Under the pieces are notes generated by a model that was not told where the DNA came from, made no database searches, and saw only the letters and a program-made list of their open reading frames with translations. Positions 1,761 through 30,948 of a stretch of DNA of 64,000 bases are shown here, one piece after another (position 1 is the stretch's first letter; every line of letters starts with the position of its first letter). Position numbers and translations under genes: made by a program. Source of the DNA: Lachnospiraceae bacterium (GTDB lineage: Bacteria; Bacillota; Clostridia; TANB77; CAG-508); the NCBI GenBank assembly GCA_963621995.1, contig CAVFFZ010000004.1:16876-80875 (forward strand). The letters are read 5' to 3'.

Positions 1761-4091
1761 TTAATTTATTATTTCTAAACCAGCATATTTTGCCATTAAA
1801 CGCTTATGTCCTGCTTTATCAAAGTTAATGTCTACTTTTGCGTCTTCTCCTTCTTGTTCTATAGAATTTATAGTTCCTTCACCAAATTTCTTATGGTATA
1901 CTCGCATTCCTGATTGATATTTTGAAATGTCTATATCTTGTTTTGGTTTGTTTAAAGAATTTAAGAAATTTTCTGCAGTTCTAAACGCAAAGCCAGAATT
2001 GTTATCCACTTTTTGTGCTTTAGGTGTGGATATGCTTCCTGCAGCATTGTATGTTCTTACATCTGTTTCATTAAATTTGTATGTTTTTACTTTTCCAGCA
2101 TAATTTGTTCCATATGCCCAGCCATAATTTGAATCTTCAAAGTTTTCTTCTCTATTTCCATTCATCTCACTATAGCCTTCTAGTAGCTCTTCTGGAATTT
2201 CTTTAACAAAACGAGAAATTGCATTGTAACTTGTTGAGCCAAATATTGTTCTGTGCTTAGCACATGTTAAGTATAAATATTGTTTTGCTCTTGTAATTCC
2301 TACATAGAACAAACGTCTCTCTTCTTCTAATTCTTTTGGCTCTCCTATTGATTTGTAACCTGGGAATATTCCCTCTTCCATTCCTACTAAGAAAACGACT
2401 GGGAATTCTAGTCCTTTTGCACTATGAAGTGTCATTAATGTAACACTTTCGTCTGTCTCTTGTAAGTTATCTACATCACTAGATAATGTAATACTTTCTA
2501 AGAATTCATTTAATGAATTTTCTGCATATTCTTCTTCAAATTCCATTGCTACTGTTAATAACTCGTCCAAATTTTGAATTCTGCTTTCTGCTTCTACTGT
2601 ATTTTCTAGTTCTAAAGCTTTTGTGTATCCACTTTTGTTTAATACCATTTTTATTAATTCTGATATTTGTGTTTCATCTTTCTTGCTCTTTAGGTCTTCT
2701 ATTAATTCTATGAATTCTCTTGAATTTACAAATACTCTGTTTAATCCGTACTCATCTGCATGTTTTATTACCTCATACATTGAGTTTCCTGTTTGGTAAC
2801 TAATTTCTTCAACATTGTCTAAACTTGTTTTTCCTATTCCACGTTTTGGCTCATTTATAATTCTTTTTAGAGATATATTATCTGATTGATTTGCAATTAA
2901 ACGTAAATATGCAATTGTATCTTTTATTTCTTTTCTTTCATAGAATTTTAGCCCACCTACTACTTTGTATGGTATATCTTCTCTTAATAAAATATCTTCT
3001 ATTGCTCTTGATTGTGAGTTCATTCTATATAGAATTGAGAAGTCTGAATATTTAAAATATTCCTCTGCTTTTAAGTGATTTATTTGTTCAACGATGTATC
3101 TTGCTTCGTCATATTCGTCATCGCCTTGATAAATTGCTGGTAACTTTCCTTCTTCATTTTCTGTCCATAGTTTTTTCTCATATTTTGTCTCATTATTTTT
3201 TATTACATAATTTGCTGCTTTTAAAATATTTCCTGTACAACGATAATTTTGCTCTAATTTAATTATTTTTGTTCCTGGAAAGTCTTTTTCAAAGTTTAAT
3301 ATGTTAGAAATATCTGCTCCACGGAAACTATATATTCCTTGGTCATTGTCTCCTACAACTGTAATGTTTCCATACTTTGAAGCCAAAATTGTTACTAATG
3401 TAAATTGAGCTTTGTTTGTATCTTGGTATTCATCTACTAATACATATTTGAATTTTTCTGTGTAGTAGTCTAGTACCTCTGGATTTTCTGTTAATATTTT
3501 TATTGTATAATTTATTATATCGTCAAAATCTATTGCATTATTTTCTTTTAAACGTTTTTGATATAGAGTATATATTTCTCCTATTTTTGCTTTTCTAAAG
3601 TCTGCCTGATATTTAACACAGTATTGCATAGGTTCTAACATTTCATTTTTTGCATTGCTTATTTCTGATAAAACACTTCTATCCGTAAACATTTTGTCGT
3701 CTATATTTAATGCTTTTAAACATTCTTTTACTAATGTTCTTTGATCTTGAGTGTCAAATATTAGAAATGATGAATCAAAACCTATTCTGTCTATATATTT
3801 TCTTAAAATACGCACACAAATAGAATGGAATGTTCCCATCCATATATCTTTTGCAACATCTCCAACTAAATTTTCTATTCTTTCTTTCATTTCGTTAGCT
3901 GCTTTATTTGTGAATGTTATTGCTAATATATTCCATGGCGCTATGTTTTTTTCAGCTATTAGGTATGCTATTTTGTGTGTTAATACTTTTGTTTTACCAC
4001 TTCCTGCTCCTGCTATTACCAAGCATGGTCCCTCAGTTTCTAGTACCGCTTCTTTTTGTTTATTATTTAATCCTTCTATTAACTCTTGCAT
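1761..4091 (-). CDS. pcrA: ATP-dependent DNA helicase PcrA/UvrD
   Basis: Track ORF 1761..4118. Walker A is AGAGSGKTKVLT and UvrD motifs run throughout. The internal ATG at 4091 has a GGAG RBS at 9 nt; the ATG at 4118 has none. Confidence 0.9.
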   Translation of the reverse strand: MQELIEGLNNKQKEAVLETEGPCLVIAGAGSGKTKVLTHKIAYLIAEKNIAPWNILAITFTNKAANEMKERIENLVGDVAKDIWMGTFHSICVRILRKYIDRIGFDSSFLIFDTQDQRTLVKECLKALNIDDKMFTDRSVLSEISNAKNEMLEPMQYCVKYQADFRKAKIGEIYTLYQKRLKENNAIDFDDIINYTIKILTENPEVLDYYTEKFKYVLVDEYQDTNKAQFTLVTILASKYGNITVVGDNDQGIYSFRGADISNILNFEKDFPGTKIIKLEQNYRCTGNILKAANYVIKNNETKYEKKLWTENEEGKLPAIYQGDDEYDEARYIVEQINHLKAEEYFKYSDFSILYRMNSQSRAIEDILLREDIPYKVVGGLKFYERKEIKDTIAYLRLIANQSDNISLKRIINEPKRGIGKTSLDNVEEISYQTGNSMYEVIKHADEYGLNRVFVNSREFIELIEDLKSKKDETQISELIKMVLNKSGYTKALELENTVEAESRIQNLDELLTVAMEFEEEYAENSLNEFLESITLSSDVDNLQETDESVTLMTLHSAKGLEFPVVFLVGMEEGIFPGYKSIGEPKELEEERRLFYVGITRAKQYLYLTCAKHRTIFGSTSYNAISRFVKEIPEELLEGYSEMNGNREENFEDSNYGWAYGTNYAGKVKTYKFNETDVRTYNAAGSISTPKAQKVDNNSGFAFRTAENFLNSLNKPKQDIDISKYQSGMRVYHKKFGEGTINSIEQEGEDAKVDINFDKAGHKRLMAKYAGLEIIN

Positions 4092-4111
4092 TTTTGTTTC
4101 TCCATTTCTTA

Positions 4112-4140
4112 TTGACATATTTAATATTTTTGTTTATAAT
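4112..4140 (+). promoter_or_regulatory. consensus sigma-A promoter, TTGACA-17 nt-TATAAT
   Basis: TTGACA at 4112-4117, a 17-nt spacer, TATAAT at 4135-4140. It points away from pcrA with no plus-strand ORF downstream. Confidence 0.6.
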
Positions 4141-4146
4141 ATATTT

Positions 4147-4230
4147 AGAAAATGAGAAACCACAAACGTGGTTGCCTAAGATATGTTTTAACAACACATT
4201 GCTCGGGAAAGCTAGATGTGTTGTTTTTTA
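4147..4230 (+). ncRNA. candidate ~85-nt small RNA (putative antitoxin, or antisense to the pcrA leader)
   Basis: Bounded by the consensus promoter and an intrinsic terminator (AACAACACAT...ATGTGTTGTT plus TTTT, 4190-4229). It contains the hairpin AACCAC-AAAC-GTGGTT and is convergent with the 39-aa ORF. Confidence 0.4.
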
Positions 4231-4234
4231 TTGG

Positions 4235-4354
4235 TTATTTGCTTTTGCTCAAAATAATAACTAATGCTATTATCAAGGCTATGGCAATGATAGTTATAAA
4301 TATTAAAGAATAAAATAATATGTATATTATGCTCACTAATACTAACTCTATCAT
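4235..4354 (-). CDS. 39-aa hydrophobic peptide (type I toxin-like)
   Basis: Below the track size cutoff. AAAGGAGGTGAGGCTT-ATG; translation MIELVLVSIIYILFYSLIFITIIAIALIIALVIILSKSK, a single TM segment with a Lys-rich tail. Confidence 0.5.
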   Translation of the reverse strand: MIELVLVSIIYILFYSLIFITIIAIALIIALVIILSKSK

Positions 4355-4460
4355 AAGCCTCACCTCCTTTAATTGGAGGCAACCACATCTGCTATTCTCA
4401 CTTTCTATGTTATTTAGTCTATACTATTTTTTATATATTGTCTAGCGAACACTTAAACTT

Positions 4461-4928
4461 TTATAAAAAATTTGTTTGTATTTTTTCAATTATTTTTATT
4501 AAACACTTTTCTATTTCTTCGGCACAATTTTGATATACATTCATGTCATATCCCCATGGATCTTTTATATCCATATCTTGTCCATTTTTATCTAATTCTG
4601 CATATTCCTTCATTGTAAATACTTTTTCTTTTACTTCCGGGTACATATATAATACACTTTGTTTATGAGATTCTGTAGCACATAAGATTATATCCATTTC
4701 TTTAATTCTAGATTTTCTTATATTTGTTGCTCTATGTCTTTCTATATTTACATCATAATATTTTGCCGCTTTCACAGCATTATAAGTTGCATAGTCACCA
4801 TCTTCAGCATATATTCCACATGAACATATGTCTAAATCTAAATTATTATCTTTTGCTAGTTTTTTCATCATTCCTTCTGCCATTGCACTTCTACATATGT
4901 TGCCTGTACATATAAACATTATTTTCAT
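4461..4928 (-). CDS. low-molecular-weight protein arginine/tyrosine phosphatase
   Basis: N-terminal CTGNICRS P-loop (CX5R-S) and about 155 aa, typical of the LMW-PTP/YwlE family. Confidence 0.85.
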   Translation of the reverse strand: MKIMFICTGNICRSAMAEGMMKKLAKDNNLDLDICSCGIYAEDGDYATYNAVKAAKYYDVNIERHRATNIRKSRIKEMDIILCATESHKQSVLYMYPEVKEKVFTMKEYAELDKNGQDMDIKDPWGYDMNVYQNCAEEIEKCLIKIIEKIQTNFL

Positions 4929-5145
4929 ATTTTGTCCCTCTTCTCAACCATTTTTATATTATTATAATTGTTATGCTAACTTTTGTCTATAATATATATA
5001 AGATTATTAAATTTCATACATTACAATGCCTTTTTATAATCTATAAATTGTATGCTCCAAAGATTAACCTTTTGGTATTTTAGTCGTTTGAGTCGAAAGC
5101 AAGTTACGAATAAAATATGCAGAGGCAACGTCCCCAAAAAGATAA

Positions 5146-5443
5146 TTAGAGTGACATTGCGAGCATTCCTAATAGGAATCCGGCTATGTTTCCTATTGCT
5201 GTCATTCTTCCGTGATATAAACTATTTGATTCTGGTATTAGTTCGCCTGATACTATGTATAGCATTGCTCCTGCCGCAAAACTTAAACACATTGCTATTA
5301 CTTCTTGTGATATTCCACCAAGTATTGCTCCAAAAAATGCTCCTATTCCTGTTGTTACTCCTGATAATATTACGTAGAAAATTACTTTTCCTTTTTTCAT
5401 TCCTCCGTTTTTCATGGGCACTGCCATACTTATTCCTTCTGGT
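5146..5443 (-). pseudogene. ZIP-family zinc transporter, 3' fragment (split by the island)
   Basis: ...PEG-ISMAVPMKNGG...GELIPES... continues exactly where the 5' fragment at 15817-16271 breaks (HDVPEG|ISMAVP). Confidence 0.85.
5435..5443. repeat. 9-bp shared core CCTTCTGGT (left junction)
   Basis: Identical 9-mer at 15817-15825, sitting at the two break points of the ZIP gene. Confidence 0.8.
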
Positions 5444-5502
5444 TGACATCAAAGTAGGCAGTTTCAATTTTTATTTTTGACTAATTTAATATTAAATTAG
5501 CC

Positions 5503-7059
5503 TTATATTTTTTCTTTTAGGTTATTTAATTGTTTAAAATTAAAATACAAATCTACTTGTTTATCTTGATGAATTTCAATTCTATTGATAATTACTTTCA
5601 TAATTTCTGATGTTGGCTCTTTTAATTCTAAAAATTCCTTAATCAACTTTTTTATGTTTTCATTATCATCTTGTTTTGAAGTATTCTGCATCTCTTTCAT
5701 TTGTACATATTCTCTTTCTTTTTGTTCTGCCTCATCTATTAATTTTTTATATAGCCTCTCATACATTGTTTCAGTTATTTTCCCATTTAATTTATCAACA
5801 TACATTTGATCTATATTATCATTTATAAGTTTTACTTCATTTTCTAACTTTTTTAGTATTTTCTCATAATTATATTTAGTCCTACTCTTTCTAATATTTA
5901 GTTCTATTTTTTCACTATCAATATCTTCAAATAATTTTTTTATATAATCTAACACCATTTCTTCTAAATTCTCATAACTAAATCCATGTGAGGTACAAAG
6001 ATTTATCTTTGAGTTTCTACGGTAATTATTACATACCATATAATAATGACCATTCTTTTTTCCTCTCACACCTATTTTATGATGACATTCATAACAAAAA
6101 AGTAATCCATCTAATAAAAATGTATTTTTCTTTTCATTTCTGTTGTAACTTTGGACTATCACCATTTTTTGTACCCTATCAAAAATTTTTTTATCTATTA
6201 TTGGTGGGTGTGTATTTTCTACAACATTCCATTGTTCCTTTGGATTTGGTCGAAGTTTTCTATTTTTATAGCTTATTCTGCTCCTTTTATTTTGTTCTGT
6301 TGTTCCTATATACACTTTATTTCTTAATATATTTTTTATCGTTTTATTTTCCCAAAATGAGTCTTTATTATATCTTGATTGATTAGCCGTAGGAATATTA
6401 TTTGTGTTTAAATAATCTCTTATGACGCCAACTTGATTTCCTGCCAATGCCATATTAAATATAGTCTTTACTATTTCAGCTTCTGTCTCACAAATTATTA
6501 GTTTGTTTTTATCTTTTGAGTCTTTCATATATCCTATTGCTGTTTTTCCCCCTACCCACTTTCCTTGTTTTTGCATAGTATGTAGAGCTGTCCTAATTTT
6601 TTTTGACAAGTCTTTAGAATACATATCATTTAATATTGATTTAAAAGGTGCAATATCATTGTTACCATTTGACGTTTCAAAAGTATCTATTCCATCTGTT
6701 ACAGAAACATATCTAACATTATTTTCAGGAAACCATTTTTCTATATATTCTCCTGTTTCTATGTAATCACGTCCTAAACGAGATAAGTCCTTTGTTACAA
6801 CCATATTAACTTTTCCTGAATTAATATCTCTAATCATTCGCTGAAAGCCTGGTCTATTAAAATTTGTTCCAGTGTAGCCTTGGTCAATATAAATGTCTAT
6901 TAGTTCATACTGCCATCCTAATTTTTGGACATATTCTGTTAATAATGTTCTTTGATTTTTTATGCTTTCGCTTTCATCATATCCTCTATCTACATCTTCT
7001 TTCGATAACCTTATATAAACTGCTACCTTGTACATTGTTTCTTCTATTTGTTCAAGCAC
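5503..7059 (-). CDS. large serine recombinase
   Basis: 518 aa. N-terminal resolvase domain (VAVYIRLSKED...SRLGRD), followed by a recombinase domain, Cys-rich zinc ribbon and coiled-coil tail. Confidence 0.9.
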   Translation of the reverse strand: MLEQIEETMYKVAVYIRLSKEDVDRGYDESESIKNQRTLLTEYVQKLGWQYELIDIYIDQGYTGTNFNRPGFQRMIRDINSGKVNMVVTKDLSRLGRDYIETGEYIEKWFPENNVRYVSVTDGIDTFETSNGNNDIAPFKSILNDMYSKDLSKKIRTALHTMQKQGKWVGGKTAIGYMKDSKDKNKLIICETEAEIVKTIFNMALAGNQVGVIRDYLNTNNIPTANQSRYNKDSFWENKTIKNILRNKVYIGTTEQNKRSRISYKNRKLRPNPKEQWNVVENTHPPIIDKKIFDRVQKMVIVQSYNRNEKKNTFLLDGLLFCYECHHKIGVRGKKNGHYYMVCNNYRRNSKINLCTSHGFSYENLEEMVLDYIKKLFEDIDSEKIELNIRKSRTKYNYEKILKKLENEVKLINDNIDQMYVDKLNGKITETMYERLYKKLIDEAEQKEREYVQMKEMQNTSKQDDNENIKKLIKEFLELKEPTSEIMKVIINRIEIHQDKQVDLYFNFKQLNNLKEKI

Positions 7060-7373: not shown

Positions 7374-8612
7374 CTAACTCAGGATTATTGCGAAAACTGT
7401 CGTCAGTTTTTATCCGACCGAGAAATTGAAGGAACCTGTCCTATTTGTGGTGGTCATGCCAAGGGCGATCAATGTGATGACTGCTTGGCGACTTTTGATG
7501 CAAATGAACTTACTAACAAAACCTGTAAATATTGTGGTTCTCCTGTATCAAAGCACAGCAATGTCCATCTTTATTGGAAATTATCCAAATATCAGCACCA
7601 AATCGCTGATTATGTGAGTTCTCATGAACATTTATGGAGATTTAGCGCAATAAATGAATCTCGTAAATATCTTGCTAACTCTGGTTTGATGGACAGAGCA
7701 ATTACCCGTCAGCTCGATTGGGGTATCGATGTACCGGTTAAAGGATTTGATGACAAAAAAATCTATGTATGGATTGAACCTGTTTTGGGATATATCTCTG
7801 CTGGAAAAAAATATTGTGAAGAACATGGTCTGAATTGGGAAGACTTTTATAAAGATTCCTCTTCTTTGGATACATATTATGTTCATGGCAAGGATAATAT
7901 TCCTTTCCATACAATCATTTTCCCGGCGTTGTTAATTGCTTTAAACGAGAATTACCAGCTACCTAACCACATTGTATCTTCTCAGTTTCTCAACATTGAT
8001 GATGAGAAAATTTCCAAGAGCAAAGGCAATGGTATTACTGTCAAAGATTTGTTAAACACATATTCTTCTGATAGTATTCGCTATTGTTTGACTTACCAGT
8101 CCCCTGAATTGAAGGATACCAACTTTATACCTGAAATTCTCGAACAACTGCATAACAAAATTCTTGTTGGCGAGTATGGTAACTTTGTAAATCGCAACTT
8201 GGCTTTTCTTGTAAAAAAGTTCAAGGGTATTATTCCTGTCGGTACTGTTAACCCTGATGTAATTTCTACTATTCAGGAAACATATTTCAAAGTGGGCGCT
8301 CTCATTGAAAATGCTGAATTAAAAAATGCTATTCAGGAAATCCAGCAACTTGTTAAATATGCTAACAAGTATTATGATGAAAAACAACCTTGGATTCAAG
8401 TTAAACAGGATATTTTCGCATTTAACGATACCACCGCTACTTGTATCGCCTTGATTGTTAACATTGCAAATCTCTATGAACCTTTTATTCCTGATTCTTC
8501 TAACATAATTTACAATTTCTTTGGAATTTCTAAACCTAATTGGGAATATATTTCAGTTGAACCCGGAGCAACATTAAACAATGTTTCAATTCTCTTCACC
8601 AGAATTGACTGA
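7374..8612 (+). pseudogene. 5'-truncated methionyl-tRNA synthetase relic
   Basis: The open frame starts right after a TAA at 7371. It encodes DYCENCRQF...CPICG...CKYCG...KISKSKGN..., colinear with residues about 145 to the end of the intact MetRS at 13663-15288. The HIGH-motif N-terminus is missing. Confidence 0.8.
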
Positions 8613-26061: not shown

Positions 26062-27456
26062 CTAATTATGAATTTTTTCTATTATTTCTCCAAATTTCAT
26101 TCCATTTGATGCTTTAAATAGAATGCAATCATTTTCTTTTTTTATTTTATTTAATATATCTGTCGCTTCTTCGTTTGATTCACATTCTATTACATTTTCT
26201 TTGTTCATTTCTGTTTTAGCTATATTTGCAATATATTCTGCTTCTTTGCCTACTACTATTAATATATCAATTTTATTTTTTATTACTTCTTTTCCTACTT
26301 TTTCATGTAATTCTTTAGAATATTCACCTAATTCTAGCATATCTCCTAATACTGCTATTTTTCTTTTGTTTTCTATTTTTCCTAAATACTCTAAAGCTGC
26401 TTTCATAGAATCATAATTTGCATTATAACAATCATTTATAATTGTTATATTTTCTTCTATTTTTGTGATGTCCATTCTTTTTTTAGTTAATTCAAACCTT
26501 TCTATTCCATTTTTTATTTTTTCTATTGGTATTTCAAAAATACTTCCTACTGCGATTGCACATAAACTATTTAGTACAAAGTGATTTCCTCCTACGGGAA
26601 CATGTATTTTTGTATTTGTACCTTTTAATATATATGTGCTTCCATCTTCTTTTGATTCAATATTTTCTGCTGAAAAATCGCTTTTGTTTTCTATTCCATA
26701 TGTAACTATTTTGTATTTTTCTTTATTCTCTAAATACCATTTATGTAATAAATCATTATCATTATTTATAACTATTGTTCCGTCTTTTTCCATTCCTTCT
26801 AATATTTCTAGTTTTGCTTTTAATATATTCTCTCTTGATCCTAAATTACCAATATGTGCAGTTCCTATATTGGTAATTACACAAACTGTTGGTTTTGCAA
26901 TTTTAGTTAGCGTACTTATTTCACCAAAATGATTCATTCCCATTTCAATAGTTAATGCTTCTTCATTTTTTAATCTGAATATTGTAAGTGGCACACCAAT
27001 ATGGTTATTGTAATTGCCTTCTGTTTTCAATGTGTTGAATTTTTGATTCATTACATTTGCAACTATATCTTTTGTGCTTGTTTTTCCTACGCTACCCGTA
27101 ATTGCTACTACAGGTATATTATACATGGTTCTTTTGTATGTTGCTATTTGTTGTATTGCTTTTATTGTATCTTCTACTATAATAATGAATTTGTCTTTAT
27201 ATTTTTCTTTTTGTTCTTCAGTTATTTGAATATCTTGCAAAATTGCACCTTTAGCTCCTTTTGCAAATGCTTCTTCATAATAGATACTACCATTAATAGT
27301 TTCTCCCTGAATTCCTAAATAGGTATCTCCTTCCTTTGTTTTTCTTGAATCTTTCTCAAAATTTTGACAAAGATATTTCTCATTTCCTATTACTAACTTT
27401 CCATTTGTAACATTTAAAATTTCCCTTACACTTATTTTATGGTCTTCTTTTTCCAT
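26062..27456 (-). CDS. murF: UDP-MurNAc-tripeptide--D-Ala-D-Ala ligase
   Basis: GSVGKTSTK P-loop and Mur ligase architecture, located upstream of ddl. Confidence 0.85.
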   Translation of the reverse strand: MEKEDHKISVREILNVTNGKLVIGNEKYLCQNFEKDSRKTKEGDTYLGIQGETINGSIYYEEAFAKGAKGAILQDIQITEEQKEKYKDKFIIIVEDTIKAIQQIATYKRTMYNIPVVAITGSVGKTSTKDIVANVMNQKFNTLKTEGNYNNHIGVPLTIFRLKNEEALTIEMGMNHFGEISTLTKIAKPTVCVITNIGTAHIGNLGSRENILKAKLEILEGMEKDGTIVINNDNDLLHKWYLENKEKYKIVTYGIENKSDFSAENIESKEDGSTYILKGTNTKIHVPVGGNHFVLNSLCAIAVGSIFEIPIEKIKNGIERFELTKKRMDITKIEENITIINDCYNANYDSMKAALEYLGKIENKRKIAVLGDMLELGEYSKELHEKVGKEVIKNKIDILIVVGKEAEYIANIAKTEMNKENVIECESNEEATDILNKIKKENDCILFKASNGMKFGEIIEKIHN

Positions 27457-29817: not shown

Positions 29818-30948
29818 ATGAAGAAAATTTTAATTTTTTACGCATCTTATGGAGGAGGACATCTATCTGCTGCAAAATCTATTAAACAATATATTGATGA
29901 AAATTACACTGATGTTCAAACTGAACTAATTGATTGTGTTAAATATATTAATAAAGCTTTAGACAAAGTAACTACTGCTGCTTATAGAGAAATGGCAAAA
30001 AAAGCACCCTGGGCTTGGGAAAAAGTTTATTATAAATCTCAAAATGGACTTTTATCTAAAGTAAGCACTTCTTCTAACAAAATTATGGCTGTAAAAATAG
30101 CTAAGTTATTCCGTGAATTTAACCCAGACATTGTAATTTCCACTCATCCATTTGGTTCACAAATGACTAGTTATTTAAAACAAAAAGGAAAAACTAATTG
30201 TTTGCTTGCAACTATTATGACTGATTTTGCACCACATGAACAATGGCTTATTGGAAATAAATTTGTAGATTTTTATTTTGTATCAAATTCTTCTATGAAA
30301 GATAAAATGGTTCAAGATTCTATTGATGGGAATAAAATTTTTGTTACAGGAATTCCTATTTCTAATAGATTTTTACAAACTTATAATAAAAAGGAAGTTT
30401 GCAATTTATTTGAATTAGATGCAAATAAAAAAATTGTTCTATTTTTTGCTGGCGGGGAATATGGACTTGGTAAAGATAAAACCGTAGCAATTTTAGATTG
30501 TTTGTCTGATTTTAATGATATTCAAGTTATTGCAATTGCTGGTAAAAATGAAAAAATGAAAAAAGAATTTGAGGAAATAGTTGCTAAAAAGCATAAGGAA
30601 TCTACTATTAAGGTTCTTCCTTTTACAGATAAAGTTCCTGAACTTATGTCTATTTCTAATTTAGTTATAACTAAGCCTGGTGGATTAACTACAAGTGAAA
30701 GTTTAGCTTCGTCTCTTCCTTTTATTATAATTAACCCTATTCCTGGTCAAGAAGAAGAAAATGCTGCATTTTTAGAAGATTCTGGTTGTGCTGTTTGGTT
30801 AAAAAAACATGATAATCCAAAGGATGTTTTAGAAAGAGTTTTGTTTAATGATGATGTTTTATCTAAAATGAAAGAAAATTCTATTAAGCTTTCTAAAAGA
30901 AATTCAACTGAAGATATTTGTACTACTATACTTTCTAAAAATATATAA
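29818..30948 (+). CDS. GT28 (MGDG synthase/UgtP-like) glycosyltransferase
   Basis: MKKILIFYASYGGGHLSAAKSI... and a C-terminal ITKPGGLTTSE. ATG at 29818. Confidence 0.75.
   Translation: MKKILIFYASYGGGHLSAAKSIKQYIDENYTDVQTELIDCVKYINKALDKVTTAAYREMAKKAPWAWEKVYYKSQNGLLSKVSTSSNKIMAVKIAKLFREFNPDIVISTHPFGSQMTSYLKQKGKTNCLLATIMTDFAPHEQWLIGNKFVDFYFVSNSSMKDKMVQDSIDGNKIFVTGIPISNRFLQTYNKKEVCNLFELDANKKIVLFFAGGEYGLGKDKTVAILDCLSDFNDIQVIAIAGKNEKMKKEFEEIVAKKHKESTIKVLPFTDKVPELMSISNLVITKPGGLTTSESLASSLPFIIINPIPGQEEENAAFLEDSGCAVWLKKHDNPKDVLERVLFNDDVLSKMKENSIKLSKRNSTEDICTTILSKNI

Follow-up and report, generated by a model that had tools for sequence, protein, structure and literature searches.

A convergent small RNA and membrane-peptide cassette in the pcrA leader of an uncultured gut Clostridia genome resembles type I toxin–antitoxin systems

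Type I toxin–antitoxin systems are difficult to find by sequence similarity, and beyond a few model organisms hardly any are known. In the convergent systems bsrG/SR4, bsrE/SR5 and txpA/RatA of Bacillus subtilis, a small hydrophobic peptide is encoded by an mRNA that sequesters its own ribosome-binding site (RBS), and the antitoxin RNA is complementary to the 3′ untranslated region of that mRNA. Their shared likely action is ribonuclease (RNase)-mediated decay, and SR4 is reported to affect translation as well (PMC6563280). In two other systems, hok/sok (plasmid R1) and aapA1/IsoA1 (Helicobacter pylori), the 5′ and 3′ regions of the full-length toxin mRNA pair and thereby lock it, and the RBS is sequestered (PMC8594479, PMC6733600). 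RBS sequestration, terminator stem-loops and 5′–3′ long-distance interactions are recognised signatures of type I toxin mRNAs (PMC8594479). Here we describe a ~300-bp cassette (positions 4112–4444) in a 64,000-nucleotide stretch of DNA (hereafter, the window) from a metagenome-assembled gut Clostridia genome, in which a plus-strand small RNA gene converges on a minus-strand gene for a peptide of 39 amino acids (aa) between a phosphatase gene and pcrA. Judged from its sequence and that of its relatives, the cassette is probably a chromosomal type I toxin–antitoxin-like module of an undescribed family. By analogy, the closest architecture is that of the 3′-overlapping Bacillus systems, to which a hok-like fold-back has been added.

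The cassette shares with the three B. subtilis systems the convergent arrangement, the complementarity of the small RNA to the 3′ untranslated region, the small hydrophobic peptide and the predicted sequestration of the RBS within the mRNA. However, it has no sequence relationship to bsrG/SR4 or txpA/RatA (its score with the Rfam BsrG model is 12.9 bits, where the gathering score is 55, and there is no Pfam or PDB match), and it is found on the chromosomes of uncultured Clostridia, with no prophage link seen. To our knowledge, no mRNA 5′/3′ helix that is mimicked by the 5′ end of the antitoxin has been described in the 3′-overlapping Bacillus systems. The fold-back is shared with hok/sok and aapA1/IsoA1, as an analogy of mechanism and not as homology: Sok and IsoA1 target the 5′ region of their mRNAs, whereas the cassette RNA is complementary to the 3′ side of the fold-back, and the peptide has no Hok_Gef match. 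The par system (Fst, RNA I–RNA II) of Enterococcus faecalis plasmid pAD1 (for the family, see PMC7472228) resembles the cassette in its two small convergent transcripts with a shared terminal hairpin, which is bidirectional in many cassette copies, in its hydrophobic peptide of 33–40 aa and in the closure of the RBS by a 5′ stem. The cassette has no Fst match, and its repeats are inverted, which gives both 5′ ends one sense and leaves them unable to pair with each other. In par, by contrast, direct repeats make the 5′ ends of both transcripts complementary. The Clostridioides difficile pairs CD2517.1-RCd8, CD2907.1-RCd9 and CD0956.2-RCd10 and their prophage homologues are, like the cassette, convergent overlapping genes of Clostridia; they have long complementarity, and their toxins have a hydrophobic N terminus and a basic C terminus (PMC6563280, PMC5961336). 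These systems adjoin CRISPR arrays or sit in prophages, and their toxins of 50–53 aa with a lysine-rich tail (PMC6563280) are set apart by these descriptions from the cassette peptides, which have 33–46 aa and at most two or three C-terminal polar residues.

The genome of the window comprises 1.51 Mb in 54 contigs, and the window is low in G+C (27%). The parts of the cassette, in window positions, are as follows.

4112–4140, plus strand: promoter of the small RNA, TTGACA-17-TATAAT, matching 12 of 12 consensus positions.
4147–4232, plus strand: predicted small antisense RNA of ~85 nucleotides (nt), the candidate antitoxin; from the fold, both ends being predictions.
4158–4173, 4190–4225 and 4226–4231, plus strand: 5′ hairpin, terminator stem and U run of the small RNA.
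4416–4444, minus strand: promoter of the peptide mRNA, TAGACA-17-TAGACT, matching 9 of 12 consensus positions.
4377–4407, minus strand: 5′ arm of the long-range helix of the mRNA, near-identical, in the same sense, to the 5′ end of the small RNA.
4363–4379, minus strand: RBS-closing hairpin of CCUCC (4379–4375), a 7-nt loop and GGAGG (4367–4363), read directly from the sequence.
4235–4354, minus strand: gene for the 39-aa peptide including the stop codon, the candidate toxin; from the open reading frame (ORF) and the family alignment.
4275–4279, minus strand: GCCUU within the ORF, the predicted partner of GAGGU in the RBS.
4146–4177, minus strand: 3′ arm of the long-range helix of the mRNA, exactly antisense to the 5′ end of the small RNA.

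An earlier reading of the window (the original prediction) had proposed a type I toxin–antitoxin-like module with a fold-back and a 3′-overlapping antisense RNA at this place, and the related genomes described below support that proposal. The perfect plus-strand promoter on which it was built is present and is the best promoter site within 3000–5500. The ~85-nt small RNA that it foresaw is matched by a predicted fold of 4147–4232 (−21.5 kcal/mol, z = −2.7) with a terminator and a T run, and this RNA would be antisense to the region downstream of the peptide stop codon (4235–4237). The 39-aa ORF indeed has a strong RBS, AAAGGAGGTG, 7 nt upstream of its ATG, and the CCUCC-7 nt-GGAGG element stands where it was placed. 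In other copies, the promoter that aligns with that of the peptide mRNA reads TTGxxx-17-TATAGT. Other parts of the original prediction had to be amended. The small RNA region was said to contain no ORF, but a 53-aa plus-strand frame spans 4152–4313; we rejected this frame as coding because it has no RBS and is shifted by a 1-nt indel between family members (AUGAGAA versus AUGGAGAA). Likewise, the statement that the minus-strand hairpin lacks a U tail is correct for the first hairpin and not for a second one (4173–4158), an alternative fold of the 3′ arm, which is followed by the U-rich tail UCUCAUUUUC and was flagged as terminator-like on the minus strand. With these amendments, the locus presents a hydrophobic peptide of 39 aa, within the <60 aa and with the one predicted transmembrane helix usual for type I toxins, a complementary non-coding RNA from the same locus with its own promoter and terminator at the sequence level, and a toxin mRNA that folds in silico to sequester its RBS.

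To examine related genomes for the peptide/RNA pair, loci were fetched, most of them chosen by an exact 20-mer inside the 3′ arm, and then searched by profile; the census classes given below are from that search. There were 116 different full-length cassettes in more than 100 genomes of low-GC uncultured gut Clostridia, as well as deletion variants at the pcrA site of close relatives, and the recurrence of the whole arrangement in so many different copies is more than chance would give. In the sense of the mRNA, the copies share the order of a TTGxxx-17-TATAGT promoter, the near-invariant leader UAGGAAAUGAGAAUAAGCAGAUGUGGUUUGCC, an RBS-pairing sequence, the RBS and the ORF, followed by an A-rich run, a hairpin, GGCAAACCACGUUUGUGGUUUCUCCAUUUCCUA and the reverse complements of TATAAT and TTGACA. 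Across the copies, the two promoters and the terminator have been conserved.

The 10-nt complementary boxes noted in the original prediction are real but are merely the core of a 29-bp helix, in which 13 + 16 pairs join 4407–4377 to 4177–4146 of the minus-strand RNA. The 266-nt minus-strand RNA folds with −88.6 kcal/mol, compared with −48.3 ± 4.4 kcal/mol for its shuffles (z = −9.1), none of 200 of which was as good. Across 108 different arm pairs, the duplex of a copy's own 5′ and 3′ arms has a mean energy of −42 kcal/mol, versus −13 ± 3 kcal/mol with shuffled arms. When RNAalifold was applied to the full 398-column alignment, it returned only 16 pairs, as columns were shifted by indels, and we therefore tested a hand-specified structure, consisting of the long-range helix, the RBS/ORF pairing and the terminator, on an alignment of 115 sequences. 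In this structure, 93.5% of cells pair, as opposed to 40–48% when partners are slid by 1–3 columns, and changes on both sides occur in 25 of its 41 pairs. Its covariation score is 0.152 (0.087 ± 0.002 after shuffling), a value reached by 0 of 500 shuffles. Helices 1–3 are 91–97% paired, with changes on both sides, and compensatory variants of the arms include GUGCUACC/GGUAGCAC, GUUAGCC/GGCUAAC and GUGUGUUGCC/GGCAACACAC as well as matched insertions of U and A.

Because the small RNA begins with nearly the same ~30 nt as the mRNA, the 3′ end of the mRNA is complementary to its own 5′ end; at the sequence level, similarity of the leaders and pairing of the mRNA ends are the same thing, and we used the type of mismatch to tell them apart. 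The non-Watson–Crick cells of the arms comprise 402 G-U and 48 A-C cells. This excess of G-U is supportive, although not decisive, evidence of selection on an RNA of mRNA sense and not on a DNA inverted repeat. At three fixed positions the mRNA has GCAGAU where the small RNA has ACAAAC; these differences abolish the local hairpin in the leader of the mRNA and keep wobble pairing with the 3′ arm.

The RBS has two partners, the upstream GCCUCC and the ORF-internal GCCUU. The upstream partner covaries between subgroups, with GCCUCC/GGAGGU in one and ACCACU/GGUGGU in another. The columns of the ORF-internal GCCUU are ~99% conserved, including a GCC alanine codon that is unusual at 27% GC; RNAalifold pairs columns 116–118 with 228–230, and this helix (helix 4) is 96.8% paired. 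In partition-function folds of the 115 mRNAs, the RBS core had a median unpaired probability of 0.11, which dropped to 0.02 when the 3′ part was masked as if the small RNA were bound. Taken together, the fold-back and the predicted sequestration of the RBS are supported by covariation.

As for the small RNA, both of its promoter hexamers are at least 90% conserved across the 116 copies, the stems of its terminator and hairpin covary, and it has no conserved reading frame across the copies. A permissive Rfam scan of 3900–4700 gave only matches at the level of chance, the best being BsrG (E = 1.6). We also considered pairing of the small RNA with the toxin RBS in trans, as in the SprA1AS model, and found by inspection no conserved complementarity longer than 4 nt.

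The peptide is a single hydrophobic helix with a C-terminal SKSK, and AlphaFold2, run on the family alignment, models residues 2–38 as one helix (predicted local distance difference test, 95.9). The family is composed of 26% Ile, 19% Leu, 9% Val and 9% Ala, with the consensus MIExxLLxIIYILFYxLIGxTIIAFALIIALVxILSKxK; a divergent subgroup has an NVAL motif and a W-x-x-K end. The original prediction hinged in part on conservation of this ORF, and the frame has been kept as protein: the median ratio of nonsynonymous to synonymous substitution rates (dN/dS) is 0.42 and dN is lower than dS in 96% of 3601 pairs, which argues that the frame is translated and constrained. An intact ORF of 33–50 aa follows GGAGGUG in at least 98 of the 116 copies by a strict RBS-plus-ATG test; the other 18 appear by eye to be mostly misses of the search pattern, with three clearly broken. 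A 46-aa variant at 1539–1676 of locus L021 carries an in-frame internal duplication of 18 nt, with IIAIAL present twice, and the length of the helix evidently tolerates it.

Searches of Pfam and NCBIfam with the peptide and its relatives returned nothing relevant, and a Pfam scan of 49 family members at E values up to 10 gave no Fst, Ldr, Hok_Gef or other type I toxin family. A profile search of PDB sequences found only SecG at E = 0.58, which is noise, and the best score in the ESM Atlas, 0.79 to unnamed clusters, is below the informative level. In a profile search of 1.84 billion cluster representatives, 211 clusters were found at E ≤ 0.001; the 150 of them that were listed are all short (36–165 aa, mostly <100 aa). 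The family members listed in a word-indexed protein search bear no fitting name: the 42-aa GTG-extended frame had seven matches, of which six are unnamed, and the automatic name of the remaining JGI entry, ABC-transporter permease, was rejected as a misfit for a 50-aa peptide. With no match in Pfam, NCBIfam, Rfam or PDB, the cassette is, as judged by sequence, a new family within a known kind of system.

The distribution of the family is patchy and multi-copy, which fits type I modules, as these usually behave so. Among the 24 genomes of the same genus, 23 have a match, often several per genome. More than 118 stretches in a collection of species-representative genomes contain an exact match to a 20-nt core of the RNA, and all carriers are uncultured gut Clostridia from humans, goats, rabbits and other hosts, including 'Clostridium sp. 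CAG:245', 'CAG:780' and '28_17'. Besides the full cassettes, the census contains 21 internal copies with the RNA gene only, 13 remnants of the 5′ side only and 6 loci with a tandem array. In the genome of the window, the cassette occurs once and is accompanied by two copies of the RNA gene alone, as found by a DNA search with which nhmmer on the whole genome agrees, and no paralogue of the peptide was found there. Each of the two has a promoter, the CCACAAACGUGG hairpin, UUGCC and a terminator, without an adjoining peptide gene.

Contig 12, 30087–30168 (locus L002, ~1471–1611), plus strand: RNA-only copy 1, with a consensus-like promoter.
Contig 11, 26361–26451 (locus L003, ~1422–1568), minus strand: RNA-only copy 2, with a consensus-like promoter.

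The copy on contig 12 is the better fit to the family profile, at 66 bits versus 50 bits for the RNA of the cassette. The tandem arrays hold two or three full cassettes in 1–1.5 kilobases (L051 at 4855–6210, L040, L050, L056, L101 and L152), and neighbours within an array belong to different peptide subgroups. All sampled loci have a GC content of 23–30%, whatever family name is on record. Five of the cassette-bearing loci (L071, L118, L119, L126 and L127; 23–28% GC) are titled Lachnospiraceae, Oscillospiraceae or Erysipelotrichaceae, and the family labels of these metagenome-assembled genomes should probably not be trusted.

On these grounds, we propose that the weak minus-strand promoter (4444–4416) would give an mRNA of ~265 nt, from ~4410 to ~4146, encoding a peptide with a single transmembrane helix, and that the plus-strand promoter would give the ~85-nt small RNA, fully complementary to the 3′ untranslated region of that mRNA. 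In its resting state the mRNA would be untranslated, with its first ~30 nt paired with its last ~30 nt and its RBS closed by the upstream CCUCC and the ORF-internal GCCUU. Since the 5′ end of the small RNA is a near-copy of the 5′ end of the mRNA, either could occupy the same 3′ site, and they would compete for it. Once bound, the small RNA would form a long perfect duplex and free the 5′ arm of the mRNA, so that the RBS would be closed further; judging by RatA, SR4 and SR5, the duplex would probably be attacked by a double-strand-specific RNase. Once the small RNA is lost, the peptide may be made and may damage the membrane.

Several observations weigh against this proposal. No known toxin family was matched, and the label 'toxin' thus rests on the architecture and on the behaviour of the family. 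Many type I systems are linked to mobile elements; nevertheless, the exact 20-mer had no match in the viral contigs of IMG/VR, and blastn found no match to the family among the plasmids of PLSDB. The conservation of the 3′ arm partly reflects the choice of loci by the 20-mer, and three inherited positions account for about 300 of the 402 G-U cells; with these set aside, the ratio of G-U to A-C would be ~2:1 by our estimate. The RBS is predicted to be closed in every state modelled. Furthermore, several copies have a truly bidirectional terminator with a U run in the direction of the mRNA, where the transcript could end before the 3′ arm and the long-range helix would be prevented.

A bolder version of the proposal holds that the small RNA acts as antitoxin by molecular mimicry of the 5′ end of the mRNA, that the RNA-only copies serve as anti-addiction elements in trans, and that the cassette gates pcrA. 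On this account, the mRNA would be stable while its 5′ and 3′ ends are paired, and binding would convert it to a form closed at the RBS by the freed 5′ arm, the 3′ duplex being cleaved, and the RNA-only copies could neutralise the toxin mRNAs of other copies or of incoming DNA. The ~30-nt leader is near-identical across the family, and thus RNA-only copies could act on the mRNAs of other copies. We regard this version as tentative and, taken as a whole, more doubtful than not.

Returning to the type I proposal itself, the alternative that survives best is that the peptide is a non-toxic small membrane protein, such as a modulator of a transporter or sensor, and the RNA an ordinary cis-antisense regulator. 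RNA-regulated small membrane proteins are common in Gram-positive bacteria (PMC10730256), and the conservation of the peptide as a protein, the absence of a toxin family match, and the chromosomal location of the module, which was not found on viral contigs or plasmids, are all compatible with such a role. Nonetheless, the copy number varies from zero to several per genome, tandem arrays and RNA-only copies exist, and the ORF has been lost repeatedly at one locus; variable copies and repeated loss are more in keeping with a dispensable, selfish-like module than with a housekeeping factor. The layered silencing of translation is also of the kind seen for dangerous products. We therefore consider a benign peptide unlikely.

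The next alternative, that the cassette is a cis-regulatory leader of the downstream gene, with translation of the ORF or the antisense RNA controlling read-through of the hairpins, is best weighed at the pcrA site.

1761–4094, minus strand: pcrA, with Pfam UvrD/PcrA domains, downstream of the peptide gene and in the same orientation.

No minus-strand promoter-like site was found within 4095–4415, and only the cassette promoter (4444–4416) precedes pcrA. The original prediction that the peptide transcript may read into pcrA is thus plausible. As the cassette sits in the leader of pcrA, transcription of pcrA probably must read through it; that is, pcrA probably depends on read-through across both hairpins and against the convergent consensus promoter of the small RNA, which stands just 18 nt ahead of the pcrA start codon. 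To see how general this is, we counted downstream genes in the 95 copies with enough flank (loci L010–L166). In 46 of the 95, a co-oriented gene begins no more than 300 nt downstream, at a median of ~45 nt past the −35 box of the small RNA, as opposed to a convergent gene end in 21 and neither in 28, a ratio that is not a clean statistic because the copies are interrelated. Several copies have an RBS and an ATG directly after the −35 box of the small RNA. These counts suggest that read-through into downstream genes is common, and they speak for a leader. However, the other 49 copies have no such downstream gene, and the peptide, under purifying selection over its full length and predicted to form a membrane helix, is unlike leader peptides.

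Close relatives of the window genome bear on the same question. Two genomes of the same genus (G019 and G024) have kept only the two promoter flanks at the pcrA site, namely the minus-strand promoter of the cassette and the −35 box of the small RNA. In these relatives without a cassette, the same minus-strand promoter stands directly upstream of pcrA and would drive it, which argues that the cassette is not needed for pcrA expression. In a third genome (G011), the RNA gene is kept at 99% identity and window positions 4248–4383, including the ORF, are lost, and two more (G013 and G006) have other deletions at the site. The simplest reading of these variants is repeated internal deletion of an ancestral cassette, with insertion as the alternative. 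Read-through into pcrA is not the general role of the cassette family and at this locus is better seen as a side effect, and a leader function as the explanation of the cassette is improbable. It is scarcely credible, lastly, that the ~30-bp inverted repeat marks a miniature transposable element with an incidental ORF and 'RNA gene', for although an imperfect inverted repeat flanks the ORF (4146–4177 versus 4377–4407) and the unit is multi-copy, intergenic and present or absent at the same site in relatives, homology runs ~35–40 nt past both arms and stops at the −35 boxes, so that the repeats are not the termini of an element, the 'empty' sites retain both promoter flanks, as after internal deletion rather than at a never-occupied target, and the ORF is under purifying selection, with arm mismatches G-U-biased on one strand.

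If the cassette is a type I module, as we favour, its RNA mechanism would join the 3′-overlap logic of Bacillus to the fold-back logic of hok, with an antitoxin that targets the 3′ partner of the fold-back, in a family that is common in a large lineage of uncultured low-GC gut Clostridia. The states of the pcrA site form a decay series, from the intact cassette, by way of a form that has the RNA gene but no longer the ORF, to a scar of promoters only, which would illustrate the loss of a module and the takeover of its promoter by a neighbouring gene. Model Firmicutes cannot dispense with pcrA. For annotation, family models are merited for the peptide and for the RNA.

The remaining neighbours on the side of the cassette opposite pcrA are the following.

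4461–4928, minus strand: low-molecular-weight phosphatase gene, flanking the cassette.
5503–7059, minus strand: large serine recombinase gene, with Resolvase, Recombinase and zinc-ribbon domains.

A plus-strand ORF between them (5052–5480) has no family match. Beyond the recombinase gene, the methionyl-tRNA synthetase ORF (metG, 7485–8612, plus strand) matches only positions 159–530 of a 530-position model, and the start of the recombinase gene lies ~430 nt away. The metG frame is missing ~158 N-terminal residues; the gene may have suffered a frameshift, or a recombinase-borne element may have interrupted or displaced it.

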